A stretch of DNA of 63,770 bases, counting the filler, from Stramenopiles sp. TOSAG23-2 (lineage: Eukaryota), in assembly GCA_900128395.1 (NCBI GenBank). It is 45 parts of 45 records of this genome, joined end to end, with 100 filler letters (N's around TTAATTAATTAA, not from the genome) between each part and the next. Parts side by side here need not be neighbours in the genome. Positions count along the whole stretch, not along the records: positions 2,858 to 4,185 come from LT653163.1; positions 4,286 to 5,613 come from LT653164.1; positions 5,714 to 7,040 come from LT653165.1; positions 7,141 to 8,466 come from LT653166.1; positions 8,567 to 9,892 come from LT653167.1; positions 9,993 to 11,317 come from LT653168.1; positions 11,418 to 12,742 come from LT653169.1; positions 12,843 to 14,167 come from LT653170.1; 37 more parts are not named here. One strand, written 5' to 3'. Under the pieces are notes generated by a model that saw only the letters and a list, made by a program, of their open reading frames with translations, was not told the DNA's origin and ran no database searches. A program made the position numbers and the translations under genes. Shown here in pieces: positions 3,420 through 53,090 of the stretch. Numbering within the stretch: position 1 is the stretch's first letter; the number at the start of each line of letters is the position of its first letter.

Positions 3420-3650
3420 ATTAGTAGGTACATAGCATTGCTGTAGAACTGTGCTAACGCTTATAGCTCATTGTAATCTGATGTATGATGATGTAATGAT
3501 GATGCAATGATAATCGATTCCAAATTCCTATAATAGTGCGATTAGTTAATTAGTAGGTACATATAGGACATCTAGGTACATAAGTATAGATCTAGAATAG
3601 AGTATAGGTATAGATAGCACGAAATGAAGCCGATTAGTAGGTACATAGCA
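3420..3650 (+). repeat. cluster of dispersed 18-bp motif ATTAGTAGGTACATAGCA
   Basis: Exact copies at 3420-3437 and 3633-3650, partial copy at 3549-3563; related copies in four other contigs. Confidence 0.85.
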
Positions 3651-4571
3651 CATAGCACCAGTATCCAGCAGGTGCAGGTTACCCGACACAATCGTGTTCG
3701 CTCTGGTGATAATGCTATGTGTATATTATCTTCGAATACAATGCTATACAGATGCTATTTTTAAAATCAATAGTGTATCGTTTTAATTGGTGGCAAGCAT
3801 TAAGGTATATATATACGATGGGAACAGCACACTTAAAGAACCGCCGCCCCCTATAACTAGCTGCTAAAACACTTGTTCGTTTTTATGGCCGTTTTATTAG
3901 CAATAAATACATCAATAAATGCATCAATATTGATCAATAAATGTATGTACATCGTTGACAGAGGGAAAAACAAACAAAAGTGTAGAAGAACAAATACCAA
4001 AGAACAGTTGTAAAACAATATATATATATATAAGTCTATCGTAATACATATTCGTTTCATAAATATAGTAGTACATATAGTATATATATAGTTAAAAAAA
4101 AAAAACATAATATAACAAAAAATGGAAGAATTTACATCCGAAAAACAAGATAGGGAAGCACGGATTAAAGCACGTCGTACACGTANNNNNNNNNNNNNNN
4201 NNNNNNNNNNNNNNNNNNNNNNNNNNNNNTTAATTAATTAANNNNNNNNNNNNNNNNNNNNNNNNNNNNNNNNNNNNNNNNNNNNACATATATACTATAT
4301 GTAATATATATCATATAATGTCATATCATAATATGATATCCTATCATATGATTTATCATAGTACACATTTGATATATACGTATTAATATAAAAAATTCTC
4401 TTATTTTTTATAATTTTGAAAGATTTTATTTACTCATAAATATATATAATGTATATGTAAACACTAAAAATGATGAATACTAATAATCAGCATTTCTTGT
4501 TGTGTGTACGAATATATATATAATGTTAACATGGATAATATTTTTTTCTTATTTGAGAAACAATAGGCGTC

Positions 4572-4712
4572 GTCGTCTAGGTCGTCAGGAAGTCGACTCG
4601 TCTATATATTTCACACAATATATTCGATATTTCGGCCTCTATTATCAACTAGTCGTCTGGTCGTCAGGAAGTTGACGACTGGTCTATCTCACACTCGATA
4701 TTTCGGCCTCTA
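4572..4712. repeat. imperfect tandem duplication (GTCGTCT-GGTCGTCAGGAAGT..CGATATTTCGGCCTCTAT)
   Basis: Two copies starting at about 4572 and 4652. Confidence 0.75.
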
Positions 4713-5050
4713 TATTCTCGGTTTTATTTATAAACTCTTCCCAGCTTCGAAATTTTCATCTTTTGCGGTAAAAAATCTCAAAATTTGGTGTATCGACAAA
4801 TGTGTACACACCGTACACAAGGAGAGAATTATTGTAAAACTACGATATAGATTTGAATAATGTGTGGTAGCTAGCCAGGCTAGCTCTAGCTCTAGCTCTA
4901 GCCCTATACCACCTGGTGTATATAATCAATCCTAATGGTATTTATAAGCTAACATCTTTTTTTAATCATCAACATATGACAACTATAACTGTATATTTAA
5001 AAAATAAATGTATTTAATGGTACTAAACGTAATAGACATATTCCCAATTA

Positions 5051-5206
5051 GGTACTGGTTGCCGCGGCGCATCTGGAAATGCGTGTCATATAGAATGTTC
5101 CAATCGTGGAAAATGCGATAATAAAAAAGGTTCATGCGAATGTTATCCTGGATTTTTTGGAGAAGCATGTGAAAATTATGATGTGTTGAATGCAGGAAGG
5201 TTGTGA
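5051..5206 (+). CDS. terminal exon/fragment of EGF-like, mastigoneme-type protein
   Basis: GTGCRGASGNACHIECSNRGKCDNKKGSCECYPGFFGEAC..stop; GNxCHxxCSNRGxCD is typical of stramenopile mastigoneme/SIG-like protein C-termini; possible TAG acceptor at 5049-5051. Confidence 0.65.
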   Translation, partial: GTGCRGASGNACHIECSNRGKCDNKKGSCECYPGFFGEACENYDVLNAGRL

Positions 5207-6847
5207 TTTCAGTGATAGCATAATAAAAAAAATATACGAAGCGTGCGACGACACGTTATTAATAGATATACAGGTATATTATATACGCCGTATGTATTAA
5301 ATATACATCATCATACTTAAACATAAATTGTAAAATACGACTTTTTTATGTACGTTGGTAATATATACATATATATATATGTATATATATTATATGTGTG
5401 ATCTTTGTAGAAGTATATTATAAAATTTACATATATTTGCGATTGAGTATTGAACATACGTTTCGTATTATTTTACCACGGGAAGTAAAATTATTACGAA
5501 TATAGTAACTTAGATTTTAACCATCCATTATATGTATAATAGATTAAGGTGTTTTACTTTTACTGTCGTAGAATATATTAATATTAGATATACTGTAGGA
5601 GGCATTCAAAGGTNNNNNNNNNNNNNNNNNNNNNNNNNNNNNNNNNNNNNNNNNNNNTTAATTAATTAANNNNNNNNNNNNNNNNNNNNNNNNNNNNNNN
5701 NNNNNNNNNNNNNGATTTTTACGAAAATATCCCTGCCTATTGCATGCTATTTGGATTTTGATTATTTACTTGTAATACTATTTCATGCTAAAATATATAT
5801 GGATCCCCATAATATAGTGCCGTCTAATTCGTCGTGCATTTATTTTTTATATACTCTTATTCTCGTAGTCGTCTAGCTACTATTGCTATTTCATTTAGCA
5901 ATAGTATACTAGACGACTATACTTACAACAACAACAAAAAATGAAAAATAATCATCATATTCTATCTCAGATGAAAAGAATACACATGTTATTAAAAAAA
6001 ATCTAGATAAGTCGAATGATGTATCAAATTTAAGTGATAATACCGAAGAGATAAATATCTCGTTAAAAGACGTTGTCGTGGANNNNNNNNNNNNNNNNNN
6101 NNNNNNNNNNNNNNNTCTCGTCAAAAGACGTTGTCGTGGATGTGCAGGTGTGAATTTGAAGTAATGCAAAAGTTTGTTTTATCAACGTATATACGAGCGT
6201 ATATATATATATATACAGTGTATATATTTATTTTTTGAGTTAAGTTATTCATTTGAGAGTATGATAGAAATTATCACGAGTAGAAAATAAAAATTAAAAT
6301 ACGCGCGTACTTTAATATATATAAAAAATTCTCTTACTTAAAATTTAATATATTATATATAAAATGTTCTCTTACTCATATATATGATACGACTCGTAAT
6401 ATTATCAATAATATTTTTATATATATAAAAGAGAATTATTTTTACATATATATNNNNNNNNNNNNNNNNNNNNNNNNNNNNNNNNNNNNNNNNNNNNNNN
6501 NNNNNNNNNNNNNNNNNNNNNNNNNNNNNNNNTTACTCATATATTATATAAATTTCTTTTACTCCCGTTCATTAACATCTTAAATCAAAAATGATTTATA
6601 AAGTTTAGTAAAAATTATTTATGTATATATTATCAAAGGATCTTGGGTGTTATATATATACGAAGCGTTCGATATTAATATTAAAATATATGTGTACGAA
6701 TCATTTAATATTAACGCACGTGGTAATTAAAACAAAATCATTTTTGGTTAAAATCTCTTCTAAAGTTATATTTTACATTCATACTCTCTCGTAAATTAAT
6801 TTTTAAAATCCTCATTTTTGACCACATATCATTCGATTTACCACACA

Positions 6848-7039
6848 TCACGCTACATAAGTTTTATTCAACTTGTCCAACCTTGCTAAATGATTTCGTT
6901 GTTCCATCTTTATTTCAGATAATTTCCTTAACTGGTGGTCGTGATACATTTCCAATGCTTCTATTTGCGCCATGCTAAGTTCCGTGAGGCCAATTCCAAA
7001 AATAGAGGTAAATTTAATATCAAGAGTGCTACTTAGCGG
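6848..7039 (-). CDS. hypothetical protein, 3' fragment
   Basis: Open frame from the contig edge: ..FGIGLTELSMAQIEALEMYHDHQLRKL..stop. Confidence 0.4.
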   Translation of the reverse strand, partial: PLSSTLDIKFTSIFGIGLTELSMAQIEALEMYHDHQLRKLSEIKMEQRNHLARLDKLNKTYVA

Positions 7040-7140
7040 GNNNNNNNNNNNNNNNNNNNNNNNNNNNNNNNNNNNNNNNNNNNNTTAATTAATTAANNNN
7101 NNNNNNNNNNNNNNNNNNNNNNNNNNNNNNNNNNNNNNNN

Positions 7141-8176
7141 AAAACTCCACAAATAATTTCGTTTGAACGAAAATCATTGTTTGTTTATTGTATACAGCAA
7201 ATTCAATAATAACTGCACGTGTTGCACCATCGACCCAATTATTTGAATGTAAATCATTGATTAATTGGATAGCAGCTGCATTTCCCATATTATTTGGCAT
7301 CCTGACAATATAGCCACCTTTCGATGGGTAAGCCAAACGCCATGCTTCATACAATGTTACTCTTGCTTCTTTTTCCTCATCATAATTAAATGCATTTACA
7401 AAATTATTGTAATATGGATCTGATGTTTTATTCCGAACATTTGCAATAATCGTGGCATTGCCAAAAGTTTCTGTTGCAATGTTATTACCTGGTCCTGGTT
7501 TGCCATTTACAGTGTTGTCATTTAACTCTTGATAACATTCTTTCGCAAATTCGTTTTGTAACATTTTTGGTACGTAACATCCGGCCGATCCACTATCCAT
7601 TACACGTATTTGACGCAAACGAACACTACCAACAACAGCGGTTCCATAAAAAAATTCACTACCTTCATCTGGAAACATATTTCCACTAAATGGTCCTTTT
7701 AAAAATTGCCAAAATTCCTCCTCACTTGCAATATCACCAAAGTTTTTGTATACCGCTGCGTCTTCCATTGAAAATTCTTCCTCGATAACCCAATCCCGCA
7801 TAATTTGCACAAAATAATGCGAATCATAGTCTACTCTCCACATAACTGCAAAGACAAAGAACATCATAAATATTAAGAAAATGCACATGTCCCCCAATGG
7901 ACTTCTTTCTTCAATAGACCGTTGAAAATTCATGATTAAATCCATTTTCTTGTCTTCTACTTTCTTACGATTAGAAAGACCACGGTAAATAGCTTGCACC
8001 TTGAGTACGCCATGTCTAAAACTTGGGTTACTCGCGTATTCTGCATTAATACGCTTCACTTCAACTGCATTTAATTCACGTACAATTTGAGTGTCTGTTT
8101 TGCTAAGAGACTTTCTACTTGACGGTGTACCTTTCTCAGCCAGTTCAATATCGTTCTCTGTTGTATTTTCTGCCAT
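7141..8176 (-). CDS. polycystin-2 (PKD2/TRPP)-like channel, N-terminal part with IQ motif
   Basis: S1 helix; TOP-domain motifs FWQFLKGP, GSVRLRQIRV, WVDGATRAVIIEFAVYN; IQ-like VQAIYRGLSNRK. Confidence 0.85.
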
Positions 8177-8272
8177 TTTGTCTTTTATTTATTTGTTGTT
8201 TTCTTACTTGTCCAAAATAAAATATCAATCGTGTTGTACAATATTAAGATATACTTTCTGTCTTCTATATAG

Positions 8273-8303
<31 letters not shown>

Positions 8304-8568
8304 ATGTATATATAATAAAATGTTTTTTACAAATTATTTTTGACTACATCCTTCTTATCATTTTCACTCGCTTCTTCTTGTTCTTTCTTCTTTTGGGCTT
8401 CGAGTTCCAGTCTTTGTCGCTCAGCCTCCTCTTCCTCCTCCTTCTTTCGTCTTTCTTCTTCCTTTGNNNNNNNNNNNNNNNNNNNNNNNNNNNNNNNNNN
8501 NNNNNNNNNNTTAATTAATTAANNNNNNNNNNNNNNNNNNNNNNNNNNNNNNNNNNNNNNNNNNNNAA

Positions 8569-9259
8569 TCAAATGTTGACAACGGGAAAACTATTTTCAT
8601 CCGCACAATTGCTAGTCCTGGATGAGGCTGATGACGCAAGCAAGCGCCAGGTTGGAACAAAGTTGTACAAAAATTTCATGCAAATGATAATGTGGTATTC
8701 GGTGACATTGATCTAAGCTCAAATTCTATACGTACTATTCATGGTGAAAACCAGAATCCGGGTGCAGGTGGATGGCCAACTGTAAGTATTTTAACATATT
8801 CTTTTTTTCATACAATTATTGTATTTTATCAAGCCAGCAAGGTTGCTAACAACAATAAAAAAATCTTCAATGTTCAAATATTATTAGATACGGTATTTCA
8901 ATGAGCAAACAGGATATGGTGGCGCAAGTTATAAAAAAAAGACTGCTAAGCCAATGTGTGAGGAACTCAAGAATATGAAATACATGACTGCTTATGTTGA
9001 AGAGATGAGTGGAACTTCAGCATGTGCTGTATTTCAAGATGGTAATCCAGGATGTAGTGAGAAAGAACTTAAATATATAAATAAAAATTTAGCAAATGAT
9101 AAGGAAGAAAATGAAAAGAAATTACAAAGATTAAATGCTATGGTTAACAATAAAATGAGTGAAAAAGCACGTGAATGGATTCTAAAAAGAATTGGATTAT
9201 TAAATCAATTGATAAGACAAGATGGATTAAATAGCAAAATTAAAGAAGCTGAACTGTAA
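8569..9259 (+). CDS. thioredoxin/PDI-fold selenoprotein with GUGUU motif (PDI_e-like), 5' truncated, 2 exons (8569-8781, 8888-9259)
   Basis: GKTIFIRTIASPG-U-G-U-U-RKQAPGWN (TGA at 8623, 8629, 8632), VVFGDIDL, spliced GGWPT|IRYFN cis-Pro loop, helical C-domain, KDEL-like EAEL end. Confidence 0.85.
8782..8887 (+). other. spliceosomal intron, 106 bp, phase 0
   Basis: GTAAGT donor, GCTAAC branch point, TTAG acceptor; removal restores WPTIRYF and joins two ORF-track fragments. Confidence 0.9.
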
Positions 9260-9347
9260 ACAAGAATATATATATATGTATATCATATCATATGATATAT
9301 ATATATTAAAAGTGAAAAAGAGTATAAATTCGTATTTTATTTCTCCG

Positions 9348-9437
9348 GGTAAATGATTCCACACCTACCAATTGTAATATAATCTATAAAATGTAATTCA
9401 GAAGATTATAATTGAGCATGTGTGTGATGTATTTTAC
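9348..9437 (+). promoter_or_regulatory. weak SECIS-like hairpin candidate in 3' UTR
   Basis: ATGAT at 9353 and TGAT at 9425, AA 12 nt after the core, GTAAA/TTTAC lower stem; helix II pairs poorly and the apical part is too long. Confidence 0.2.
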
Positions 9438-9992
9438 AAATATGATATGCATACCAAGAAGAGAATATTTTTTTGTTCCAACCTAAAGTAAAATATTCCA
9501 GTTCGGTACATTTCATTTTTGTATACCCAAAGAGGGGTATATTTCATTTTAAATTAAACCACGGTGCATATACATTTACACCCAGTTTTAGTACAATGTG
9601 CGAGTAATTTATTATATATTCATAATATAATATAATTTATATATATTTTAATTTATATGAGTAAGAGAAAATTATATTATACGACTTCGTGTGTATAATT
9701 TTAATCTAAAATAATTTCTTTTTTCTTAAATATTTACTTCGTATAATTTATAAAGATTTTATTTACTCTCATTTAAATGTAATCTACTTCGTAACATATA
9801 TTCGTAAGCACTAATCATACGAAATGTTGAATACTATCAATATAGCATATGTATATATATAAATATTTTCATAGAAGTGAAAGAGAAAGATANNNNNNNN
9901 NNNNNNNNNNNNNNNNNNNNNNNNNNNNNNNNNNNNTTAATTAATTAANNNNNNNNNNNNNNNNNNNNNNNNNNNNNNNNNNNNNNNNNNNN

Positions 9993-11317
9993 TCATTATT
10001 ATTTTCCATCACTTGTTTTCTGCTATTTTTTCTACTTTTTGACCCGAGTGTAAAAAATGAAATCGAAGACAAACCCTTCGACATCATACATGCAACGACG
10101 ATAATGATGCCATGGATTGAACGTATTACATGGCTCGCTGATGATATTTGCATATTAAAAAATTTTGATGTCGATTTAGATGAAAATTACCAATTCTCAA
10201 AATTTCCATACAAAGGTGAAAATTTGCTTACCTATCTATATAATAAGATTGTATTGGAATCAACAATTATGTCAGAATCTGAACCGATTCGCTTAACGCT
10301 TATAAAATATTTGTTTCAATATGCATTGATTCCATGGCTTCAAAATGTAAATAAATTGTTTTTCCAAAATAATGCCAGTACAAGAAATATTGAATTGAAC
10401 TATCTTGATGATTTTTTAGTTTCGGCAAAGATACCGCAAGAAGAAAGCAATATAAAATCTGGAATGGGAAAGAATGTTCCTAATATCATTAAAGTTGATA
10501 TAAAGAATTTCAACGACATTCCATGTTTTATTGATTTACAAGCATATAACACTATTTCAAAAGCAGCTAGGTGTATCAAAATAATTCAATCACTAGGAGA
10601 TGACAATAATATTCATTTATCATTTGAGCACATTTACAATTCTAAGTTTGAAATTGATAAGTTGCTCTTCGCTGAAGAACAACTTAAAATATTTGAAGAA
10701 CAACTTGAAGATTGGATTACTAGAAGCGATATTTTACGATTAGAAATCAATGGACGTTTAGATGAAGAAAATATATTTGAAGAATGGAATTTTGATGACG
10801 AAAAACAAGACAAAATAATTATTGATAAAAATGCATTATCGACTGCTGCAAAATTAAAGCAAGCTGCTGAGGAAGATCGGCAAGATGAATTGGAACGAAC
10901 GGTAATAGAAAATGAGAGAAAACGTCAGTTGTTGAACCAAATTGAATTTCAAATTGCAGAAAGAAGGAGACAATTGAATAATATGGAGGCAAAGGAACGG
11001 GAGTTTGATGACTTCTTTATATCCCAATTAGCTTTGAACACGCCGCGCGCATTGGGTGGAGGTGGAGTATTAGATGAGGAAAATGCTTTGAAAGTGGCTG
11101 CCACGAAATTATTATATGAACGTTATGGGCAAAATATCAAACAAGTGCAAAATCGTACAAAATTATTGCGATGGCGCTTGCAGCGTTCTCAAACTTTAGA
11201 ATCTTCTAAAATTGCATTGAAAAACTTATTAGCTGATGATGAAAGAAATCTATCTAAAGCACCGGCACCAAAAGAAGAAATAAATGGCACAAAACAAGTG
11301 ATGGAAAATAATAGTGA
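9993..11317 (+). CDS. gamma-tubulin complex component (Spc97/98 family, GCP6-like), internal fragment
   Basis: GENLLTYLY, LFQYALIPWL, IPCFI..ISKAARCIKII resemble GRIP1 motifs; followed by a coiled-coil insert. Confidence 0.6.
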
Positions 11318-12218
11318 NNNNNNNNNNNNNNNNNNNNNNNNNNNNNNNNNNNNNNNNNNNNTTAATTAATTAANNNNNNNNNNNNNNNNNNNNNNNNNNN
11401 NNNNNNNNNNNNNNNNNGTACCATCAGTTGTGAAGAACTGTTGTTTAATTGGAAGTGTTATTTGTCGTAGGTATAAGTATCAAGTGCTGAACGAAGATAA
11501 TTTAATTAGATAAACTATTGAACAAGTTGTTTTAAGCTGAAATATTGTATGTTGTTGTTTTGTGTTGGAGTAGAGAGAGAGGTATGATTATATGATGTTG
11601 TTGGGGTAGAGAGAGAGGTATGATTATGATGTGGATGGAGTAGAGAGAGAGATGTATGAAGTGGTTGTGGTATATGATTTTATGATAAATACACACACAA
11701 CACTCTCTAGATTTTAGAATAACTCTTTTTATATAAATATCATAATATATTTTTTTTGCATTTAGTATGTATAAATAGGCCTGTAAGGTTCCATCATCTA
11801 TTAGAAAAATTTCAATATGAATATAATGTATTTTACATATTACAATCAAATATACAAAAAATGGCATGGTTTTCTGTACTTATACTTGTATGGATATCAA
11901 TGTAATGATGAAATGATATGGTATTCACATACGCAGCAAGTTTGAATTGATCGTATATTATGTTATTGTTGATTTTTTTTATTCTATCATTGTGGTAATA
12001 ATACCATTTTATATTGAAATACGCTTGGATATGGCAAAGGTACTATATATTGTAAATATCAATCCAAATGTTTCACAATGAATTGGAAAAATTTGGCTTA
12101 GCGCCCCATTCTAATACTTGTTCTACCAGTCGTATACATCATAATTGATCATAAAATGATACCAGATTCATATGCGTTTTTGTTTCAATGATCGTGTGGT
12201 ATGATTTTTTATTTCGTC

Positions 12219-12500
12219 ATCATATTATATTATCAAAAACATCATCATATCATATTATCAATAACATCATCATATGATATAATCAATATCATCATCATAT
12301 CATATTATCAATATCATCATCATATGATATCGAAAAATATATGATCAAGTACATGATTATATCATTATCAAATATCATCATCATATCATGATCAATATCA
12401 TATTGAAAAGTATATGATCAAGTAAATCATTATCAATATCATATTGCAACATATATGATTGATTACATGCTTGTATCATCATCAACATATATGATCAAGT
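12219..12500. repeat. degenerate ATC/ATCATAT low-complexity satellite
   Basis: Repeated CATCATCATAT-CATATTATCAA units. Confidence 0.8.
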
Positions 12501-17718: not shown

Positions 17719-17760
<42 letters not shown>

Positions 17761-18909: not shown

Positions 18910-18943
<34 letters not shown>

Positions 18944-25554: not shown

Positions 25555-27473
25555 NNNNNNNNNNNNNNNNNNNNNNNNNNNNNNNNNNNNNNNNNNNNTT
25601 AATTAATTAANNNNNNNNNNNNNNNNNNNNNNNNNNNNNNNNNNNNNNNNNNNNTTTTATTGCATTTTTGGTATCAAATAGAAATTCCAGATTGAGCAGT
25701 CTGAGAAATTAATTTTTTATCAAGAGATAAAATATACAAGCAGCTAGTCTTTATAATTATAATTACAATAAAATCTTTCCAATTAACATTAGCTTAAAAT
25801 TACCATAAAATTGCGCGAAATCCTTAACAGTCATATGATATTATTGTCATTAGTATCGGTATAGCATTGATATGATGTAGATCCAAAAATGACATATTGG
25901 AATGTTAATAAAAATACAGTTTCATAGGTTCAATGTAGTTTCCCCCACTGTATTCATGGTGTCAAACACGATACTTGGTGTAGTCTCTGAAGGTGTGTGG
26001 AGAATTTCCAGATTCCTTATATACATAAAATATGTATAGCGCGTGTTAGGGATATAAAAAAATAATAATAAAAAATAATATTATTATAGGCACATAGCAG
26101 CAGCACTATCATATTATTATCATCAAATAATAATAATAAGTATTAGAATCCCACACAGATTAGCATATAAATAACATTAAGTTCTATTTATATGCTAAAT
26201 AGGTCAACAAATCATGTCTTTTGTGTTTTTGTTACCTAATATGATTACCACCTATATTGTAGCCCTTAAATACAATGTTTGGTTAGCTTAGGATCTTGTT
26301 AGCTTTTACGGAAACTATAGTTGATAGTAAATGATCAATGTTATATAACAATAAACTATCCACATATATTATTTGTATTACTTGTATAGATATATAATGT
26401 TTTATATATACTCTTCACTTTTTAATATAATACTATAATCTCTTTGTTGTTCTTTTTTTCTATGTTCACTTAACTTTACCAGCTTCATGGTGTACCAAAT
26501 CACTGAAAACCACACCACTTTCATTATACACAAAGTTTGTGGGTAAACTACCCGCCTAAAATTGTATAATTAAAAAGGTGCGAGGATTACCAGATTACTA
26601 TGCAGATAAGCTTACGGAACATGTTTACTAAGTTTACTACTAATATTTACCTTTTATTTTACTATAAAAATGTCACTAAAATATGCCATGTAAAACCTTA
26701 AAAAATCCACCTTTTTTTGATATTTACACACATATATATACATTGACATACTAGTACCATATACTAGTATATTTATACATCTACATATATGTATATTTCC
26801 AGAACTTTGAAATTTTGCACAGACAAAGATATTCATTGTTAGACTCCCTCTTTTGAAGCGTCACCTTCGTATGAGTGTGAGGTAAGCCAACTCATCTCTT
26901 ACACTCAAGTGGGCTGTTAGTTTATAAACGGAGACCTAACAAAATAGCAGGTATACATCATTAAGCGTCTCATTTCNNNNNNNNNNNNNNNNNNNNNNNN
27001 NNNNNNNNNNNNNNNNNNNNTTAATTAATTAANNNNNNNNNNNNNNNNNNNNNNNNNNNNNNNNNNNNNNNNNNNNAGTGAAAAGGATGGTGATAAAGCA
27101 TAATAATTAATATACATATTTATATACTATCAACTACAATATCCCTATATATATAAATAAATAAACATAAATAAATACATACACACACACACATTTCACC
27201 ACATCACCACATCACACATAGCACATTATATAGTGTTATAGTTAGAGAAGAAGAGAGAAAGTATATAGTATATATTACACAAAACACAAAAGCACAAAAG
27301 ATAAAGTTTGTCGGTCAAAATAAAAACTATCATTAAAATTAAAAAATAATTGTATTAGTTACGCACTATATTTTAATACACATATGATTAAAAATACAAA
27401 ATACAAAATCGCTCTCAAATCCCAAATCTCAAATCACCATTCCACCCTCTCTTTTTCACACTCTCATTACATC

Positions 27474-30460: not shown

Positions 30461-31338
30461 CACTTTTACTGTTTGATAATTGAATAAATAATTCTTAGTA
30501 AGAAAGTTACTTCGATATTTTTCAAATGTATTATTAACTTGATAGGTTTAATTCGTGTGCAATATAATAATATTATCACTGTTTTGATTTCAATTGTTTA
30601 TAAATTTATATAATGATTTATTCTATATATCTACGTGTACATATATGAATGTGTATTGATGTATATATATTGTGAGGATTATTAATATTCAATAGTGTGT
30701 ACATGCTATTACCTTTTTATCAAAATGGTGATAAAATCGTTTTCTCCGAAATAGTAGGTACATAGCATTACAAATGACTAATCTGCCAAATAAGTCACAC
30801 ACGATCTTCAATCCATTTTTGATATAGCATATAAATAGTATTGAAAAATTCCTCTATAAACAAAATAATGCTTTTCCACAGAAGAGCACAAAAAACCTTA
30901 TTCCTGGCCCTCTTTTTTTTTCACTCGATGAATTCCGGAATTCATCCACCTCGTTTTGAGAGAAGTGAAAAATATAATAAAATCAGCCCTCAGGCCTCAG
31001 GTGAAAAATCAGCCCTCTTTTCTCTTAGTAGCTCATATTTCATCACATCATCCTCGTCGTTCATTTCGTTCATCGCTCGTCGACATGTGAGACATGTATG
31101 AGAAACAGTATATATGATATCATGATACCACTTACATACATGCATGTGAATCTAAGTTACATATATACATGTACTGTATAACAATATTAGCAAAGAATTT
31201 TTCCCAAATTTGAAATTTTTATTTTTGAATGGCAACTANNNNNNNNNNNNNNNNNNNNNNNNNNNNNNNNNNNNNNNNNNNNTTAATTAATTAANNNNNN
31301 NNNNNNNNNNNNNNNNNNNNNNNNNNNNNNNNNNNNNN

Positions 31339-32658: not shown

Positions 32659-32758
32659 NNNNNNNNNNNNNNNNNNNNNNNNNNNNNNNNNNNNNNNNNN
32701 NNTTAATTAATTAANNNNNNNNNNNNNNNNNNNNNNNNNNNNNNNNNNNNNNNNNNNN

Positions 32759-34078
32759 TCTTTCAATGTCATATTATTATTATTATTACCATTACTACCA
32801 TTCACATCATTGTTATGCCCTGTAATCAATAATTTCACATCCTCAAAACGTCCTTTTTCACATGCGCATACTAATGGCGTGCCTTCTGGAAATTCTTCTT
32901 CATATTTAATCTCTAATTCATTACGTGCTTCTACCCTAGCTTTGCGCGCTTTTTCCTCTTCCTCTTTCTGTTTACGTGCTTCCTCTTCGTTTTGCTGAAG
33001 TATTGCTGTTTTTTCATCTACACGATGCTGTGGCTTTTTGTTAACATTTGATACTGTCACAGTGCCGTCTTTATGTAATATCTTTGGCTTAGCTTTTATA
33101 ATAGATTCAATGCTCGCTTTCCAAAAAGTATGATTACCACCAAACACTGCCGTAAAATTAATATTGCCAATACCTTTTAAATATGCTTTATCTGCTGGGC
33201 AACGTCCAATAATATTACCAATTTCCTTTTTGTATTGAACGTCAATAATGACTTGTATTGGTTTACCATATTCAACAGCCCATTCTAACTCTTTTACACA
33301 CCATGGTCTGGTAAAATACATAGGAGACATGATAACAAGAATGATCTTTGAATTTTTAATACCTTCTTTCATTGCAGCTACATCCTGCTCTTTCATTTTC
33401 ACATCCAACCAACAAGACTTTCCAAGGTCTTTCATGGAATAAAATATATCACGTGCAATATGGTTTGATAAGCTTGCGTGCGAAAAAAAATAATCCCATT
33501 CCCCGGGTTCATTTAAATAATTCACTAAACGTTTTTCTTTCTTTGCCAATAATTCTTTCATCTTTCTTTTTTCCATTTCATTACGACGTTCTTCTGCTTC
33601 TAATTGTTCAATCTCATTTTTTAAACCTGCTGTTGATTTTCGTGGTAATTCTTCTTGGTTCTTTATTTGGCTAAGTTTATACTTTGACGAACCTAAATAT
33701 GTTTTTGTTAATTCAGATATATCTATAGTATCGAATACTGCAGTAAAGCGTTTTGCTGGCGGCTTATTCATGTTTTTTTCGGAATTTAAATTATTTTGTT
33801 TTTTAGAGGAAGGTTTCTCCTCTAGTGATGATTTTTCATTCGAATCTAGTATAGTCTTTATAATTCGTTTAGGTTTTTCTTTAATAATATTATTATCATC
33901 TATTCTGGAGGGTACATGTACCCAATTGTCCTTGGTTAAAACCTTACCATCGATTTCTATATCCCCTGAATCTGAATAGTCATCTGTACGATCTCTTATC
34001 GGCACAACAAGTTCACGCCCTTCATCCTGCTTCTTCAAACTTTCATCATCTTTAAATGTTGTATCGGTAATAGTACTA
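32759..34078 (-). CDS. TIR (TIR_2-type) domain protein with coiled coils and ankyrin repeat, internal fragment
   Basis: WDYFFSH, CWLD, GIKNSK, YFTRPWCVKEL; then GTPLVCACEKGRFEDVKLLI. Confidence 0.88.
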
Positions 34079-38335: not shown

Positions 38336-38636
38336 NNNNNNNNNNNNNNNNNNNNNNNNNNNNNNNNNNNNNNNNNNNNTTAATTAATTAANNNNNNNNN
38401 NNNNNNNNNNNNNNNNNNNNNNNNNNNNNNNNNNNGTATAGGATACTCCTCCCAATTGGAACTTCCGTTTATCTTGTAATAGCATTAAATCCCGTTCAAA
38501 ACCATCGTATTCAATGGAAATCCGTTCAACGGTAGTATATATAATCGTATCCATGGATATATCAGATGTGCAAGCAAAGGATAAAACTGCGAAAGGATAA
38601 AAAGGACACTATATAAATGGATATCTTCTCTTTTAA

Positions 38637-39131
38637 ATGAATTATACCAATGAACATTTTAAAGAGAATGACTGCTGGACTACCCCCAAAAGTGTATGGC
38701 AATCGATTCAGCATCTCATTCCAACGGGTATAACATTATTTGATCCTTTTTACTACGATGGACAATCTGGAAAAGATCTAAAACAGGTGTTTCCAAATAA
38801 CAAAATCATTCATGAGGAAGGAATCGATTTCTTCGATCATTCTGTGGCTTACGATATGATTTTAACCAATCCTCCATTCTCGAAAGCCAAATCCATCTTA
38901 CGGAGGCTCAGACAGGTAGGAAAGCCATTTATGGTATTGCTTCCTACCCCTAGAATTAATACGCAGTACTTCATTGAGTTATTTAGAGACGATGATAATC
39001 TTCAGCTGGTCATCCCATCGAAGAGAATTCATTTTGTGTCGAATGAATTAAATAGAAAGAGCAATGCCAATTTTGATTGCGTATGGATAGCCTATAAATG
39101 TAAATTACCAAGAGATATTCTATTTTTGTGA
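38637..39131 (+). CDS. small DNA N6-adenine methyltransferase
   Basis: DCWTTP, LFDPFYYDGQSG (SAM binding), DFF, ILTNPPF (catalytic), PFMVLLP, RIHF. Confidence 0.88.
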   Translation: MNYTNEHFKENDCWTTPKSVWQSIQHLIPTGITLFDPFYYDGQSGKDLKQVFPNNKIIHEEGIDFFDHSVAYDMILTNPPFSKAKSILRRLRQVGKPFMVLLPTPRINTQYFIELFRDDDNLQLVIPSKRIHFVSNELNRKSNANFDCVWIAYKCKLPRDILFL

Positions 39132-39138
39132 TGTATTT

Positions 39139-39280
39139 GGATCGATAATGATTGATATGTCCAGTGCTGTGTGCCTGCTAATCAGAGATCGAATAAAAGC
39201 CATTGGATGTTTTCACATTTGATCGCTAATAATCGATATTTCCTATGCTGTGTGCCTGTTAATCAGAGATCGAACAAACA
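39139..39280. repeat. 81-bp-period intergenic direct repeat containing the dispersed 18-bp motif on the minus strand
   Basis: TGCTGTGTGCCTGYTAATCAGAGATCGAAYAAA at 39165 and 39246. Confidence 0.85.
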
Positions 39281-39386
39281 GGTATCAAGATATCGATCAT
39301 CTCGAAATTTTGTGATATCACAGTATATATACATGTTCAAGGATATTACAAAATATACACACATAACCCAATATAAAAAACAAAAA

Positions 39387-39752
39387 ATGAAACCAAATAT
39401 GTTTATGCGATACGGTTTTCGGTTTTTCTATAAAGAGAAAGATTTAGAAGCCAGTGCACACAACCCCAATGAGATTCAATTTAATATGGATGTACCCGGA
39501 AAAAGAGGCGCAAAATTTTTCGGTTATGGCACACCAGAAAAGATATATAATACTATTAAAGAATATTATGACAGAAAAATCCCGTTGTCTTTCTATGAAT
39601 TACGGGATAAACATAAACCATGTAATCTCTATGTCGATATCGATTCCTTAGCGGCATCGAAAGAATCCTATGATGAGAATACATTCCTAAAACAGGCCCG
39701 CGACGATTTCAATCGCTTCGGAATCACTGAACCATGGAACATACAACGTAGT
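39387..39752 (+). CDS. archaeo-eukaryotic primase (PrimPol/D5-like) N-terminus, 3' truncated
   Basis: GAKFF..FYEL..PCNLYVDID matches AEP motif I (YE..PC.LY.DxD). Confidence 0.8.
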
Positions 39753-42584: not shown

Positions 42585-42684
42585 NNNNNNNNNNNNNNNN
42601 NNNNNNNNNNNNNNNNNNNNNNNNNNNNTTAATTAATTAANNNNNNNNNNNNNNNNNNNNNNNNNNNNNNNNNNNNNNNNNNNN

Positions 42685-44599: not shown

Positions 44600-45340
44600 T
44601 TAACTTTCCGCCAAATTTTGTAAAAAATCTTCACTATAATCACCAACATTAGCCATTGCTGCATAATTACCACGTGGATTTTCTGGAACATCAATTCGTA
44701 TTTCATTACCTTCTTCATCATAATCGATGTTATCATCTTCGTTTTTACTACCACCAACTTCATCCGGGAAATCTTTTTTATATTTAATATAAACTGGGTC
44801 ATACGTGTTCTTTAAAATGGTGTAAGCAATGTTTACAATAATGAACTTCAATATCACTATGTGGCTCAAATCCTGGACACCAACCTTTTTTTTTATTTTT
44901 TCTATCATTCCAGCTTTGTAAATTACAAAGTTTACAAATTGGATGAATCTTATATCTCATACGTCTCACCTCTTCCACTGTTTCTGGGACATCATCTTCT
45001 TCGTCAATTGGTTCTCCGTTTTCATTTACTTTTTTACCAAATTTTGCTTCTAATTTTTTCAAACGTCTTCTATTACGAATACGTTTACGTGTCCACTTTT
45101 GCAAGGCATCAGCGATGTGACCATGCCCTTCAATGCGAGCAAAATCAATCGCACGCTCCGTATGCACATCTTGCAACTCAATATTACTTCCATTTTCATA
45201 TAATAATCTCACTGTTTCCATGAAACCATTTCTTGCTGCCCACATGATAGGAGTTTGACGTAATGTATCTGTTTCTTCGATGAAATCAACATATCCCCCG
45301 TGCTCAATGGCATATCCAACAACAGTGAAATGACTGGTCC
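44600..45340 (-). CDS. ankyrin-repeat protein with Cys/His cluster, 3' part (probable frameshift near 44800)
   Basis: TPIMWAARNGFMETVRLL, AIDFARIEGH; CKLC..WCPGF..CKHCLH. Confidence 0.7.
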
Positions 45341-45609
45341 ATCTATCTATCTATATATACAATCTCCGTATTAAATATATATTAAACATATATATATATA
45401 TATATATTTATTATNNNNNNNNNNNNNNNNNNNNNNNNNNNNNNNNNNNNNNNNNNNNTTAATTAATTAANNNNNNNNNNNNNNNNNNNNNNNNNNNNNN
45501 NNNNNNNNNNNNNNAAAAAGAAAACAAACAAAACACAATAATTTCAGAGAGAAAAAAAAAACAATTGAAAATAAATAAAAATATTTCTTCATATATATAT
45601 TGCAATTTA

Positions 45610-46749
45610 ATGTCAATGGCTGCCATGGGAAGATTAAGTAAACTTTTTTTGATGCTTTTTAATTTAATAATAGTAAGTGTAAAAGGAGAAACGTGTAGTG
45701 CTGGGGAAGGATTAGGTCCTGTTGCTATCCGTACAAGTGGTGAATGTAATACATATATAACGGATGAAGAAGAATGTAAAACACTTGCAACGGCTGCTGG
45801 AAAAATGTATGTAAGGTCAGTTTACTCGTGGGACAAGCCAAAAGGATGTCTGATGTCTAGGGGGGGGAATTATTATTTTAACACATACAACAGACCCAAT
45901 ATTCCCTGTGGCTATCCGAATTACAAATGTGTATGCGCCGAGACATGCACTGTTTGTTCCAAAGGCCATTATTCACCAGGTGGATACAATGTTCTGTGCA
46001 AAAAATGTGAAACTGGAAAATACAACAATCAAACAGGACAAAGTAAATGTAAAATGTGTACAGCAGGAAAAGCAACGTTATATGAAGGAATGAGTTCTTG
46101 TAAAGATGTAAATGTAAAGTGCAGTGCTGGAGAAGAATTGTTTTTAGGGCAGAAATACGACATGGACCCCGATGAGTGGACTCGTAGTGGACTCCCAATC
46201 CTTTCAAGTGATACATGCAAGAAATACATAACAGATGAACAAGAATGCAAAAATATAGCTTATGCTGATAGTACTAGGAAAGGGTATGGGACATATGCCG
46301 GTTCTTATTATCGGCCGCCTGGTTGTTATATTTGGAATAACAAGTATTATCATAACACGTATTATCATAACACACTCAGTACAAATTATTATGATTGTTC
46401 GGTCAAATATAATTGTGTATGTGCTGGCATCACCGAAACATGTACTGCCTGCCAACAAGGCCGTTACTCACTGGGTGGAAAAGGTATCCCATGCGAAACA
46501 TGCCCAACCGACAAACCATATACTAATCGTGATGAAATGCCAGGTGCAACGTCTATTGCTTCGTGTACTTCTAAATTGGTATGTCCTGCAAATTACTACA
46601 AAGTTGACGGCAAAAATCTAAAGCAATGTACAAAATGTCCATTCGATAAGCCGTATACAACTTTTCGTAATGGAAAATACAATAATGCGACGTCGCTTGA
46701 TATGTGCATTGGGGCAATCCCATGCAAACCTGGAGATGGTTTACAATAA
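45610..46749 (+). CDS. secreted Cys-rich repeat protein (GCC2/GCC3-like plus ITDExEC..PxGC modules)
   Basis: Signal peptide; two YITDExEC..PxGC..CVC modules and CxxCxxG repeats. Confidence 0.8.
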   Translation: MSMAAMGRLSKLFLMLFNLIIVSVKGETCSAGEGLGPVAIRTSGECNTYITDEEECKTLATAAGKMYVRSVYSWDKPKGCLMSRGGNYYFNTYNRPNIPCGYPNYKCVCAETCTVCSKGHYSPGGYNVLCKKCETGKYNNQTGQSKCKMCTAGKATLYEGMSSCKDVNVKCSAGEELFLGQKYDMDPDEWTRSGLPILSSDTCKKYITDEQECKNIAYADSTRKGYGTYAGSYYRPPGCYIWNNKYYHNTYYHNTLSTNYYDCSVKYNCVCAGITETCTACQQGRYSLGGKGIPCETCPTDKPYTNRDEMPGATSIASCTSKLVCPANYYKVDGKNLKQCTKCPFDKPYTTFRNGKYNNATSLDMCIGAIPCKPGDGLQ

Positions 46750-47467
46750 TAACAATGATGGGAATTTACAAAATAATAATAATAATAATATTGTACCATA
46801 TGAAATTGTGTTGTCATTATCATACTCAANNNNNNNNNNNNNNNNNNNNNNNNNNNNNNNNNNNNNNNNNNNNTTAATTAATTAANNNNNNNNNNNNNNN
46901 NNNNNNNNNNNNNNNNNNNNNNNNNNNNNATATTATTACATTTTTTTCAAAATCATCTGGGCTGGAATAGCACAGGGATTTAAGAGGATGTGTTGTTGGT
47001 CTTCCAGGGGGAATAGTATCGACATAGCATTAGCTAACTCGAATAGAGGGAACGTAAGGAAAACCAGAAAACCTCTTGGAAAAAAACAGCAAAAAGACGA
47101 CAACATCTTTTTATTGACGACTACATTTGAAAAAAGACAATTTGATATTCTTTCTTTCTTCTTCTTCTTATATCATATACACGAACGGTTCGTATTTTTG
47201 AAACAACAATTTTAATCTCAAATCTCAGTAAGATTAGGGGGCATGGACAGTAGTTCGTGTGTGGTGCAGTAATACAACCCGTGTGCACATGTCACCGTCA
47301 AGAAATTAAAAAAATTAGGAAGGACGTAGTTTAGGTAGAAAAAAATAAAAAACATCTAGAGAGTTAAAACTGTTTTTATATAATAAAAAAAAAGAATTAT
47401 TCTCGTATTTACGCAATATGTTCTCTCCCGTAACTTTTTCAAAAAAACAAAAAGATCTTTTCACTTT

Positions 47468-48243
47468 TCACCGCTTTTTTTTCTTTCCAGTATTTCTATT
47501 GTTATTGTTATTATTATTACGCATAAGAGAAGGGAAATCTTTATTATTTCTACGTAAAGAAAATTTATTACTATTATTTGGATCTGCTTGCCGTGCATGT
47601 AAAATAAATTCATATTCGTTATGAAAAATTAAAAGCAACGTTCGAAAACGATCTTGTAAGAAATATTTTGATAATTTCATTTCCTTTGTCACTGCTGCAT
47701 CACTATTATTATTATTATTATTATTATTATTTTTGCTACTACTAGCATAATTAAAACATTCCAATGCTTCTTTACGTAATTGTTGTTCATTATCATCTAA
47801 TTTTTCATTTTTGTCAAACCAATGTTCATTTATATTGCGTATTGCACGAATTAGATCCTTTAGATTTTTACCATCGTAATAATTATCTTTTCTTGAATCT
47901 AAATATTTTCTTACAGCAGGATGCAAGCTTCCTTTCCAGCCATCCTTATTATTACCAACAATTAGCGGTACATTTTTTAATGAATGTTGGCTGATACGTT
48001 TTCGAAAGATATTATCATTAGAGGACCAACTAGAATTCCAATCGCGAATGTTGTTTATTTGCATTGTATGATTCCAAAAAAATGGATGTTCCAATACCTC
48101 TTTAATTGTTAAACGCTTTTCTGGTTCACGTAATGTCATTCTACCTACAAGATCTAGCGCAATTGGTTGGTCGTTTAAAATATCTAAATGTATTGGATCA
48201 CCATTTTTAATATTATTTTGTTGTTCATAGCTACGTTGAGAGT
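47468..48243 (-). CDS. kinase C-lobe + KEN ribonuclease domain (IRE1/RNase L family), 3' part
   Basis: DLVGRM..PEKRLTIKEVLEHPFFW, WK..L, Y..KDLIRAIRNINEHW, YF..RF..LLL. Confidence 0.85.
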
Positions 48244-48343
48244 NNNNNNNNNNNNNNNNNNNNNNNNNNNNNNNNNNNNNNNNNNNNTTAATTAATTAAN
48301 NNNNNNNNNNNNNNNNNNNNNNNNNNNNNNNNNNNNNNNNNNN

Positions 48344-49657
48344 AAGAGGGTCATAAAGATATAGTTGAATTACTTTTAAATATGAAAAATATTGATGTCA
48401 ATAAACCAAGAAAGACTTATGGAAGAACACCATTATTAATTGCATCGGAAAAAGGCCATAAAGATATAGTTGAATTACTTTTAAATATGAAAAATATTGA
48501 CGTTAATAAAGAAGACGACGAGGATGGACTAACATCATTATTTATTGCATCGGCTGGTGGCCATAAAGATATTTTAGAATTGCTTTTAAAGATGAAAAAT
48601 ATTGATGTTAATAAACCAGCCAAGAATGGACGAACACCATTATTTATTGCATCGGGAAACGGTCATAAAGACGTAGTTGAATTACTTTTAAATATGAAAA
48701 ATATTGATGTTAATAAATCAGACAAGAATGGACGAAAACCATTATGTGTTGCATCGGAAAAGTCATAAAGACGTAGTTGAATTACTTTTAAATATGAAAA
48801 ATATTGATGTTAATAAATCAGACAAGAATGGACGAAAACCATTATGTGTTGCATCGGAAAAAGGCCATAAAGATATAGTTGAATTACTTTTAAATGTGAA
48901 CAATATTGATCTTAATAAATCAGAGAAAAATGGAGGAATACCATTATATATTGCATCTGAAAAAGGCCATAAAGATATAGTTGAATTACTTTTAAATATG
49001 AAAAATATTGATGTCAATAAAGAAGACGACGAGGATGGAGCAACACCATTATTAATTGCATCACAACAAGGTCATAAAGATATAGTTGAATTACTTTTAA
49101 ATATGAACAATATTGATCTTAATAAACCAGCCAAGAATGGAGCAACACCATTGCATGTTGCATTGACAAATGGTCATACAGATATTGCAGAATTACTTTT
49201 AAACATGAAAAGTATTGATGCTAATAAACCAGCCAAGAGTGGAGCAACACCATTATTAATTGCATCGGGAAACGGTCATAAAGACGTAGTTGAATTACTT
49301 TTAAATATGAACAATATTGATGTTAATAAAGCAACTATTAAAGGAACAACACCATTATTAATTGCATCGGAAAAAGGCCATAAAGATATAGTTGAATTAC
49401 TTTTAAATATGAAAAATATTGACGTTAATACACCAGAGAAGAATGCAGCAACACCATTATTAATTGCATCACAACAAGGTCATAATTGCATCGGAAAAAG
49501 GCCATAAAGATATAGTTGAATTACTTTTAAATATGAACAATATTGATGTTAATAAAGCAGAAAAGACTAATGAAAGAACACCATTATATATTGCATCGGA
49601 AGAAGGCCATAAAGATATAGTTGAATTATTTTTAAATATGAAAAATATTGACGTTAA
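48344..49657 (+). CDS. ankyrin-repeat array (about 13 near-identical repeats, 2 frameshifts)
   Basis: TPL.IAS..GHKDIVELLL..NIDVNK repeated; frame breaks near 48762 and 49485. Confidence 0.9.
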
Positions 49658-49902
49658 NNNNNNNNNNNNNNNNNNNNNNNNNNNNNNNNNNNNNNNNNNN
49701 NTTAATTAATTAANNNNNNNNNNNNNNNNNNNNNNNNNNNNNNNNNNNNNNNNNNNNCAGCCAGCTATAATAATAAAATAATAAAAAATAATAATAATAA
49801 TAATAAAATACTTGGTAATAATACGCAAGTATACTATATATATATACATATAGAAAGTATAAGAAGAAAAGTTGGCGTCGTATTTATTACATTATTGTCA
49901 TC

Positions 49903-50718
49903 ATGGGGAATGAAACGTCTTCGGAATATTGTGGGTATCGGGTGTTGTCTGTACAAAAAAATAGCCCTGGATTTGTTGCAGGCCTTGATCCATATTTTGA
50001 TTTTGTAGTAGCGGCTAATAATGTACAACTATTATCGGAGGATAACGCGTTTCTTGATATCATTGCACAAAACTCCGGAAAAGAATTAGAGCTTATTGTT
50101 TACAATTCAAAGCGTGATGAGACTAGAATGTGCACGATCGTCCCACGAAGCGACTGGGGTGGCCAAGGATTGCTTGGCATAACCATCAGGTTTGACTCCT
50201 TTGAAAATGCAAATGAAAATGTAATCCATATCTTGTCTGTTAAACCAGGTTCACCAGCAGATGTTGCAGGTATTAAAGCGGATGATGACTACGTATTAGG
50301 AACAGCAGAAATGGTATTTCATGACATGGAAGAGCTTGCTTTATGCTTCGAAGCCAATGTCAATAACACTATTCCATTATATGTCTATAGTGCATCGACG
50401 GATGCCGTACGTGTCGTAAATATCATACCAAATACAAATTGGGGTGGATATGGTATATTTGGATGTGAAGTTGGTCATGGATATTTACATCGTTTGCCAA
50501 CTAGAAAAAGATCTAGTTCCGAAAACAATAGTACAGTATCTTCAACGTCTATGAATAATAATGATGAGAGCAATAAGCTTGTTATAGGCAATATAGTAAA
50601 AACAACAATGGGTCCTGGTAAATTACTATTTGAAAGGCATGATGGTTTTAAAATAGTTGAATTAAAATGGTGTTTAGCAAACAATCAAAAATCAATTATG
50701 TATACAAAATTACAATAG
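49903..50718 (+). CDS. Golgi reassembly-stacking protein GRASP55/65 homolog
   Basis: MG myristoylation start, GYRVLSV..SPG..AGLDPYFDF, WGGQGLLGITIRF, WGG.G..GCEVGHGYLHRLP. Confidence 0.95.
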   Translation: MGNETSSEYCGYRVLSVQKNSPGFVAGLDPYFDFVVAANNVQLLSEDNAFLDIIAQNSGKELELIVYNSKRDETRMCTIVPRSDWGGQGLLGITIRFDSFENANENVIHILSVKPGSPADVAGIKADDDYVLGTAEMVFHDMEELALCFEANVNNTIPLYVYSASTDAVRVVNIIPNTNWGGYGIFGCEVGHGYLHRLPTRKRSSSENNSTVSSTSMNNNDESNKLVIGNIVKTTMGPGKLLFERHDGFKIVELKWCLANNQKSIMYTKLQ

Positions 50719-53090
50719 ACAACTTCATCAGTAAATAAAATCGCAAAATCATCACGGCAAAAAATATAATCCTGGTATTATGAAACAGTAACTTGTCGTA
50801 GTAGTAGAGATACATGTGGCTCAAATATAAAATGGTTTGGTTGGAGATATATATATACGTGTTCGTCTTATGATTGGTTAAAAATCTTAAGTTTTATTTT
50901 TTTTTAAATATTATATATTTAAAAAAATATTTTATTTATAAAATTTTAAAATACCAGGATAGTGTATATAGTATCATATCATATTATCATATTAATTAAT
51001 GCATTTTTATATTTTACTAGAGGAGGGTCTCCCGTTGGTCGACAGAGGCCTAATTTCATGCTTGATAATGNNNNNNNNNNNNNNNNNNNNNNNNNNNNNN
51101 NNNNNNNNNNNNNNTTAATTAATTAANNNNNNNNNNNNNNNNNNNNNNNNNNNNNNNNNNNNNNNNNNNNTCGAACTAATTATCGTTATTATATTATTAT
51201 TATTTCTCATTTTGTATTTCGATATAACAATTATAATTAATTAATTAATTTCACTATAGTAAATGTTAAAAAAAAAATATTGAGTAAGCAATATTCACTA
51301 TTTTTTTAACACAAACCGTTTTTCAAAGACTTAACAATAAGCGTAAGAATTGTACAAAGCGAGATATCCTCTTAATGTTTACAATTTACATACCCAAACA
51401 CACATACAATTACATACAATATATTGTATATATTATTAATTTATTCATAAAATTAATACGGGATTAAAATGTTAAAATAGATTTATATAGTAGGGTTAAA
51501 ATTGGATCAGAGAGTGTTTGTTAAGCTTATGATGATGCTATCGAAATAATTTTACATGAAATAACCTATTGTTTAACACTGTTTATGATTAAAATAGGAT
51601 TGGTATAACTTCATTTCTGCCATGTGGAAACCGACGTGTGCTTGTTTTTTTGCGGTGTAAATGCCCAAAATGACCATTTTAAACATCAAATTAACAACAA
51701 TATTCCCATAGTTATTAGTTATAAAATACGATGTAACAAATATCCATATTATACCTTCATTAATGTGATAATATTATAAATTATAGTTCATATTAAATAT
51801 CATCCTCATAAATATATTTATTTCATCATGATAAATCCACCACGTCGATCCCTCATGAAAAATCCTTCACTTTTTGACGATGAATCTCGTCCACGTATTT
51901 TCTTGAATGAAATTAGTAGATTTAAAATACTATTACTTCTGTTCGATATGACAATATCCGATAATATATAATATATAAAATGTTCATTACAAAATATTAT
52001 AACACATATTTAGTAATTGTTTTATATTTTTGGTTTGATAATTTTTTCTATTGATCAAAATTCCATTATAAATTATATCATTATTGTCAATTCATTCTTA
52101 TAAAAAGAAAATCATGTAGGAATTAGTAAAAACCAATGCGCCAAATTCCTTCAATTTAAGGATAACGTATTTAGAATATAATACATACCATGTATTCATG
52201 CTATTTTAACAATACTATGGTAATATTATGTTCACATACAATGGTAATAGTATTATTAAAGATGTTTATACTCCTTAATAAAACCAGATTTTGGACATAA
52301 AATATATATATATCTATATACATATACACACTATTGTGTGTGAGTGAGTATCACATACACACGGATAATCATTAAAGATCATCAATACTCAAAGAGAGAA
52401 AAAACAATATTACCATCTATAAATATTAATACAACAATAAAACATGTCTGTTGCTACATTACCATCCAATTTTGAAACACGTANNNNNNNNNNNNNNNNN
52501 NNNNNNNNNNNNNNNNNNNNNNNNNNNTTAATTAATTAANNNNNNNNNNNNNNNNNNNNNNNNNNNNNNNNNNNNNNNNNNNNTATCAATCTCTGAATAT
52601 TCTAAACGTTGTTGTAATGATTTTGGCAATACCATATTTATATTGGTTGTCCTAAATTATGTATATATATATATATCCTCTCGCTATATTTTTAAATCAA
52701 AAAAAGTGGATACTTTTCTTTCCGTGTTGTTTATTTTTATATATACTCTAGACAGATAGATAGATAGATAGGTATACACTGATTTTACTTCTTGTTTCTT
52801 GATTTTTACAAACTGTTTCTCTTCACTAAACTAACGTAGATACATATATATATATTTTTCAGTATATTTTATTGTTTTTTGAATGGTAATAAAATTATAA
52901 CGGCGGCGATGTGTTTTTTGGTTAAGGTTAGGGAGTAGGTATAGGGTTGATATTGTTGAGGAAGGAATATTTATTATAGTGCTGTGGCCTTATATTAAAT
53001 ATTAATAGGTACACAGCACCACAGGATATCAGCAAGAATTAAAATTATTAAAAAATAATATAGTAATTTAGAAGTATCCTCTAAACGTAA

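Follow-up and report, generated by a model that had tools for sequence, protein, structure and literature searches.

An 18-bp motif recurs in the 63,770-nucleotide stretch of the Stramenopiles sp. TOSAG23-2 genome (GCA_900128395.1) analysed here, hereafter the window, which consists of 45 contigs of about 1.3 kb each joined by N spacers. The motif is probably, with a likelihood that we put at roughly 0.6, bound by an abundant protein of the host that serves as a general regulatory factor in this stramenopile lineage. As expected of the site of such a protein, it is rich in information (about 22 bits), far more frequent than in control (506 exact genome-wide matches to the form WTARYAKRNACAYAGCA, against 5) and situated upstream of unrelated genes in either orientation. 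A first-pass annotation of the window had proposed a conserved, non-coding cis site bound by a protein, and the sequence comparisons reported below lend support to that part of it. Its further suggestion, a signal of a polinton-like virus (PLV) or other mobile element that had moved into host DNA, is for the most part the wrong way round: host intergenes, including single-copy promoters, contain most of the sites.

Abundance and anatomy of the motif

The copies first listed (3420, 3549, 3633, 26082-26099, 30750 and 53001, with 39165 and 39246 on the minus strand) are all present at these positions and on these strands. They are spread over five different contigs of the window and, as had been claimed, lie outside convincing open reading frames (ORFs); the copy at 3549 has three mismatches. 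At up to three mismatches the window holds 11 matches, compared with a mean of 0.69 and a maximum of 3 in 100 shuffles. Across the whole assembly (32.8 Mb in 9,146 contigs) the pattern first described is enriched over background, with 36 exact matches against 0 for the reversed control, and 694 against 29 in control when up to two mismatches are allowed. T prevails at position 8 among the first 100 matches listed for the wider form WTARYAKRNACAYAGCA, so the GG form described earlier is a minority subclass of it.

Site counts are somewhat inflated because the assembly contains duplicates; positions 2858-4185 of the window, for example, duplicate part of contig C629 (at about 23.6 kb, between two divergent genes). 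In 240 kb picked regardless of sites, one contig of which (C615) already carried a site listed in the two-mismatch search, 15 matches scored at least 13 bits, against 2 per control, and 6 matched at 15 bits, against 1. Scaled up from this sample, the genome total is roughly 700-1,800 sites. A primer or adapter origin was ruled out, because the copies are found mid-contig, on both strands and with varied flanks; 121 sites sort into 69 flank families, and the edges of the information profile are sharp.

The matrix built from the fetched loci has the consensus AWTARYAKRNACAYAGCA, again with sharp edges. The site is non-palindromic (best palindrome score 0.41) and is a direct repeat, in which columns 11 apart correlate at 0.63 and those at other offsets at no more than 0.13. 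Two 5-bp half-sites stand 11 bp apart around a constrained 6-bp spacer, which is also the commonest spacer among half-site pairs in intergenic DNA (52 pairs, against 18-34 for other spacers). Since 11 bp is one helical turn, both half-sites would lie on one face of the helix, where one protein carrying a tandem pair of DNA-binding modules, or a dimer arranged head to tail, could contact both. Clustered sites occur in tandem, head-to-head and tail-to-tail, and their spacing is not fixed.

Two details of the first-pass annotation did not survive the larger sample. Variation had been described as nearly all transitions at four positions; the 133 distinct sites examined show 271 transversions beside 257 transitions, and the earlier pattern is a small-sample effect. 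The tail GGA(N0-2)TATC does follow three copies but is not general, as information falls to 0.62 bits at position 19 and to 0.24 bits or less beyond. A structured non-coding RNA was considered and rejected, there being no Rfam match and four of five site regions folding no better than shuffles; the fifth, which folds better, is an inverted site pair.

Placement at genes and conservation

The location of sites was surveyed in nine long contigs (396 kb), four of them chosen because they held sites, with ORFs called mechanically and without intron models. Thirty-nine matches were intergenic and one lay in an ORF, although ORFs make up 72% of this DNA. Sites were found in 14 of 45 divergent intergenes, 4 of 49 tandem and 1 of 45 convergent ones (Fisher p=3e-4), and the five contigs picked regardless of sites gave 7 of 27, 0 of 18 and 0 of 26, respectively (p=0.01). 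Orientation relative to the nearest gene start was the same for 71 sites and opposite for 64. The median distance of these 135 sites to the start codon is 459 bp, within a described range of 200-1000 bp, and only 13 are closer than 200 bp, which marks the site as an upstream element and not part of the core promoter. Neighbouring genes include RPS10, RPS8, Tudor-SN, kinases, hydrolases and ankyrin proteins. By analogy with Sap1 in fission yeast, the predicted factor, once bound, may keep the region nucleosome-free for nearby promoters. Telomere-like TTAGGG boxes are equally frequent with and without sites (0.22 per kb), the words that are enriched around sites are for the most part fragments of the motif, and the nine contigs contain no tRNA genes with which sites might co-locate.

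Replication origins are an unlikely reading of the same distribution. The motif would then be an origin site, similar to the consensus of autonomously replicating sequences or to that of Sap1, and elements would carry it for early replication or fork-linked movement. Sites are intergenic, orientation-free and grouped at about one cluster per 25-30 kb, and Sap1 sites are described as enriched at origins in S. japonicus (PMC3446301). In the first nine contigs, genes that point away from sites also had the higher fourfold-site GC skew (permutation p 0.01-0.25, according to the threshold), but this difference was gone in an independent set (0.122 for 73 genes against 0.125 for 34 genes, a comparison of low power). 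The flip in AT skew at sites is explained by the divergent genes there. A search for ORC with AAA_16 gave long ATPase frames, none of them usable as a candidate.

A search of the host's own genome, which may miss repeats, placed sites in single-copy DNA at three loci: in the intergene between RPS10 and RPS8, at C654:6237 and at window position 53001. The first of these has a counterpart in a metagenome contig of a relative (L126, 20-1702), in which the divergent head-to-head gene pair is retained (RPS8 78% and RPS10 71% identity; GC 46%). The only match of at least 8 bits in that contig sits in the RPS10/RPS8 intergene and scores 15.5 bits, a value reached in 13 of 5,000 resamples, and an alignment of the otherwise unalignable intergenes puts it on the host site. 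Contigs of three other runs span the two remaining sites at this locus and have 35-37 bases in place of 6595-6815, where the host has two extra tandem copies; copy number thus varies while the site pair persists. The head-to-head arrangement itself is kept in the relative despite a very different GC content. RNA contigs of one run break off at about 6219 and 6916 in L025, with no cover over the site region; they were not used as evidence because contigs cannot show transcription starts.

The host is most likely a deep-branching stramenopile, since the nearest-ranked named eukaryotes for its RPS8 are stramenopiles at 62-68% identity (Bicosoecida, Phytophthora, Placidida and Nannochloropsis); the exceptions are longer fish and plant entries at 55-58%.

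Mobile and virus-like carriers

Six repeat families, which have no mutual similarity once the motif is masked, carry sites. Family A is a foldback element of about 420 bp (51 matches; e.g. L094:1503-1920) whose site faces outward and lies 74 bp from the tip. A Tc1/IS630-type derivative (L124:1045-2154, equal to C1522:8025-9134) is flanked by TA and has perfect 240-bp terminal inverted repeats, two inward-facing sites per arm (with two to three direct repeats in the terminal repeats) and a transposase that is truncated; a family of MITEs (miniature inverted-repeat transposable elements) of about 320 bp (25 matches) has the same ends. Family B is an inverted-repeat element of about 300 bp with six sites, and three more dispersed repeats with sites make up families C, D and E. 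The TA-flanked ends of families A and B are a reading of copy ends. The tips differ between families and are without the motif (no match of at least 8 bits in the first 35 bp of three families), and motif orientation varies from family to family. The first-pass annotation was thus right that mobile elements carry the motif, but the carriers are several unrelated small inverted-repeat families and not one element, and the terminal signal that it had suggested is not borne out, as the motif is not a terminus. As further observations, the derivative on C1522 is a young element, and the foldback ends of family A are nearly always preceded by the same CC-TA bases, which we take to suggest a palindromic target preference of the IS630 type.

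These elements raise the possibility, to our mind a doubtful one, that the motif is the internal binding site (direct repeat) of a clade of Tc1/IS630-type transposases, and that the single-copy sites are worn MITE relics or are read by a domesticated transposase. The sites in the arms of the TA-flanked families A and B agree with it, as does the family A site, whose conservation is about double that of the remaining arm (13 of 594, 0.022, against 177 of 4259, 0.042, in copies that are not independent). In the Tc1 family, by contrast, the motif varies more than any other part of the arm (21 of 252, 0.083, against 55 of 1650, 0.033) and is for this reason unlike a transposase's own site. Inverted repeat-direct repeat (IR-DR) elements carry their outer direct repeat at the tip. 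The derivative on C1522, with its motif-bearing direct repeats in long arms around a Tc1-type transposase remnant, resembles the layout described for the IR-DR elements Bari3, Minos, S and Sleeping Beauty (PMC4120734), but its repeats begin 60 bp inside the arm and vary more than the arm does, and the motif also occurs in unrelated elements and host promoters. Differing tips that lack the motif, inconsistent orientation and the spread over six families and single-copy DNA all count against a transposase site; in addition, four of seven transposase loci have no nearby site, six of the seven have no terminal inverted repeats, and a decayed relic is not expected to persist in a relative at 78% RPS8 identity.

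The densest site cluster seen, 14 site-like matches in two outward-facing tandem arrays, lies upstream of an intact DD34E transposase gene on C720, which would suit a transposase site and makes this gene a candidate domesticated or self-regulated transposase. The locus (L078:7399-8532 and 8833-10265) has no terminal inverted repeats in view, and a search with a representative transposase revealed a large, diverged family that speaks neither for nor against domestication. It is conceivable, though speculative, that the reader is a general chromatin factor peculiar to this lineage, perhaps a Tc1 transposase that was domesticated, with a role in organising promoters (perhaps origins), and that independent transposon families and integrated viruses recruited it as a cofactor of expression or insertion. 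If true, heterotrophic stramenopiles would gain a first system of the general regulatory factor type, one that parallels Sap1 and CENP-B independently.

With a host general factor as reader, the TA-flanked MITEs, the Tc1 derivative and the virus-like inserts may have captured the site since it would supply a promoter or open chromatin, and the mobile carriers would keep seeding fresh sites into intergenes. Among the virus-like carriers, contig C739 has two sites 650-900 bp beyond the last gene of a capsid block, and C7841 has one just after a capsid fragment. The C739 block (L070:2532-8589) is integrated and virus-like, with a 489-aa capsid of double-jelly-roll type, 422-aa and 747-aa orphan genes and then tandem duplications; its capsid family has 28 unnamed protein relatives, none of them in IMG/VR. 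The capsid contig of the window (1-1329) has no site by position weight matrix. Its capsid fragment (291-920; gene fragment 288-1329) shares 38% identity with a protein that the Atlas groups with double-jelly-roll capsids, and 53% with the C739 capsid.

The window contig earlier called viral-type (38436-39752) carries a Dam-like methyltransferase, an 81-bp duplication with two sites, and a primase-like fragment. The last (39378..39752) is putatively of PrimPol type by a motif; it had no match in Pfam, PHROGs, PDB or the protein collection. C1346, which has no site, and C688, which has two weak ones, carry homologues of the methyltransferase amid host genes, and the homology to C1346 ends just before the window's sites. 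Dam-like genes are present as lone inserts in host DNA (L261:3060-3554 and L262:1455-1769), one intact and one degraded.

A PLV-like virus that spread into host DNA, with the motif as its terminal, packaging or integration signal, is a most improbable source. The sites upstream of the primase-like fragment and past the capsid genes would fit such a signal, as would the double-jelly-roll type indicated by the Atlas features of a capsid homologue, but the assembly has only five capsid-family matches against hundreds of sites, and neither the siteless capsid contig nor the methyltransferase homology that stops short of the sites favours it. A check of IMG/VR gave 27 loci over three patterns, 21 of them inside ORFs, as by chance, and the loci inspected belong to unrelated viruses. 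A viral origin is also weighed down by the one site retained in a distant relative. The motif is no general signal of viruses and provides no evidence for a new viral element; inserts that use a host site would be the simpler reading.

Weighing a proposed host factor and its counterparts

Several observations weigh against a general factor. Site-bearing divergent intergenes are longer (median 1360 against 849 bp), so the divergent bias is partly one of length or a result of insertions; with length considered, p is about 0.03 as estimated from intergene lengths. Only 19 of 139 intergenes have a site, and a by-eye check found no common function among the neighbouring genes. A ribosomal regulon was rejected, as two of three L7Ae-family loci have weak or distant upstream sites and RPL7a has none. 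Conservation in orthologous promoters was seen at the one locus compared (n=1), and two of 80 RPS8 loci reached 15 bits (L126 plus one other). Repeats contain a large share of the sites (180 sites gave 65 families, with 80 sites in the four largest), and repeat-borne sites may be passengers. As to the reader that we infer, no fitting C2H2 array was present among 22 finger matches. The motif resembles the X-box of RFX; PF02257 gave 0 matches, as did the control in this incomplete assembly. A C2H2 frame on C630 (L234:1038-2001) was rejected and treated as an insert: it has five to six fingers, no start codon before them and no close paralogue, and its finger helices presumably misfit the site by the recognition code. 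This frame lies in a divergent intergene between two outward-facing sites.

The sites of Rap1/Abf1/Reb1, ZNF143/Staf, CTCF, CENP-B (the CENP-B box) and SETMAR are long (13-20 bp), information-rich and present in hundreds to thousands of copies, and several of them favour bidirectional promoters or were spread by repeats. None is known from stramenopiles to our knowledge, and they are likened here by description. Sap1 half-sites are laid out as a direct repeat. Sap1 of fission yeast is described as a general factor that excludes nucleosomes, has a conserved site in Tf1/2 long terminal repeats (LTRs) and plays a role in insertion targeting (PMC5371812, PMC3446301); in that account, as here, one host site serves both in promoters and within mobile elements. 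The lineage is another one, the carriers here are DNA transposons and virus-like inserts and not LTRs, and the present system is known from sequence alone. E2F sites are reported to have been amplified by MITEs in Brassicaceae (PMC7329337), a likeness in that a host-factor site was captured and spread by MITEs and much of the genome-wide count is within elements. The E2F factor is conserved and already known, and its site is short, whereas the motif here is 18 bp long, lineage-specific and found in at least six unrelated repeat families.

Within stramenopiles, the PhRiboBox of Phytophthora ribosomal-protein promoters is described as a 12-bp motif, present in 68 of 85 promoters at a median of 64 nt from the start codon, that occurs in both orientations and keeps its position in orthologues (PMC4696810). 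The present motif is likewise a stramenopile promoter motif found at ribosomal-protein genes, but it lies about 460 bp out and is not confined to such genes. Identity of the two was rejected, as the matrices do not match (best column r 0.45, reached by 18.5% of shuffles). A literature search for stramenopile promoter motifs found work on oomycetes only, and one for the motif itself found no description, motif letters not being reliably searchable and logos in figures being out of reach. We regard the motif as previously undescribed and as ordinary in mechanism, unless its reader is a domesticated transposase or an origin factor. The cis-regulatory codes of uncultured marine stramenopiles are essentially uncharted, and a 22-bit site present hundreds of times can serve as bait for the protein that binds it and as a promoter marker in such assemblies. 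Its capture by so many unrelated repeat families is a natural test of why mobile DNA carries host-factor sites.

The sites of the window and the features beside them are collected in Table 1, in which those at 26943, 47012, 53420(-), 53876(-) and 30693(-) come from the position weight matrix scan and were absent from the earlier list.

Table 1. Motif sites and accompanying features, in window coordinates
Feature	Position	Strand	Remarks
Full 18-bp site in divergent promoter	3420..3437	+	Contig duplicates C629:23.6 kb
Degenerate site, second half-site decayed, 15.6 bits	3549..3566	+	
Full 18-bp site	3633..3650	+	
Dispersed repeat of ~110 bp (family E), two variant sites in tandem	3680..3795	-	Most of 50 matches
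Partial site, 3' 13 bp matching	26082..26099	+	ORF-free contig
Site, 19.8 bits	26943..26960	+	
Site, 18.3 bits, tail-to-tail with 30750 site	30693..30710	-	
Full site	30750..30767	+	107-bp stretch from its first base found once more elsewhere, 81%
Dam-like N6-adenine methyltransferase gene	38637..39131	+	
Site in 81-bp tandem duplication, 196 bp upstream of primase-like start	39165..39182	-	
Site in second copy of 81-bp duplication, 115 bp upstream of primase-like start	39246..39263	-	
5' fragment of putative PrimPol-type primase gene	39378..39752	+	Putative by motif; no database match
Weak site, 16.3 bits, downstream of minus-strand gene	47012..47029	+	
Full site in single-copy DNA	53001..53018	+	Decayed inverted partner at 52980-52996
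Site, 18.7 bits, within low-copy repeat	53420..53437	-	Repeat in 3 other places
Site, 16.3 bits, at contig end	53876..53893	-	

Three further features were observed. In C628 (L025-L030) a six-gene block is present twice, at 23.6-36 kb and 40.2-52.7 kb and thus 16.6 kb apart, and this doubling is probably an assembly artefact. A second small methyltransferase gene, with RrnaAD and MTS matches and an NPDF motif, occupies 57156-57698 of the window on a separate contig. At 32707-34038, a gene with a TIR-like domain is followed, in a by-eye reading, by the beginning of an ankyrin region.

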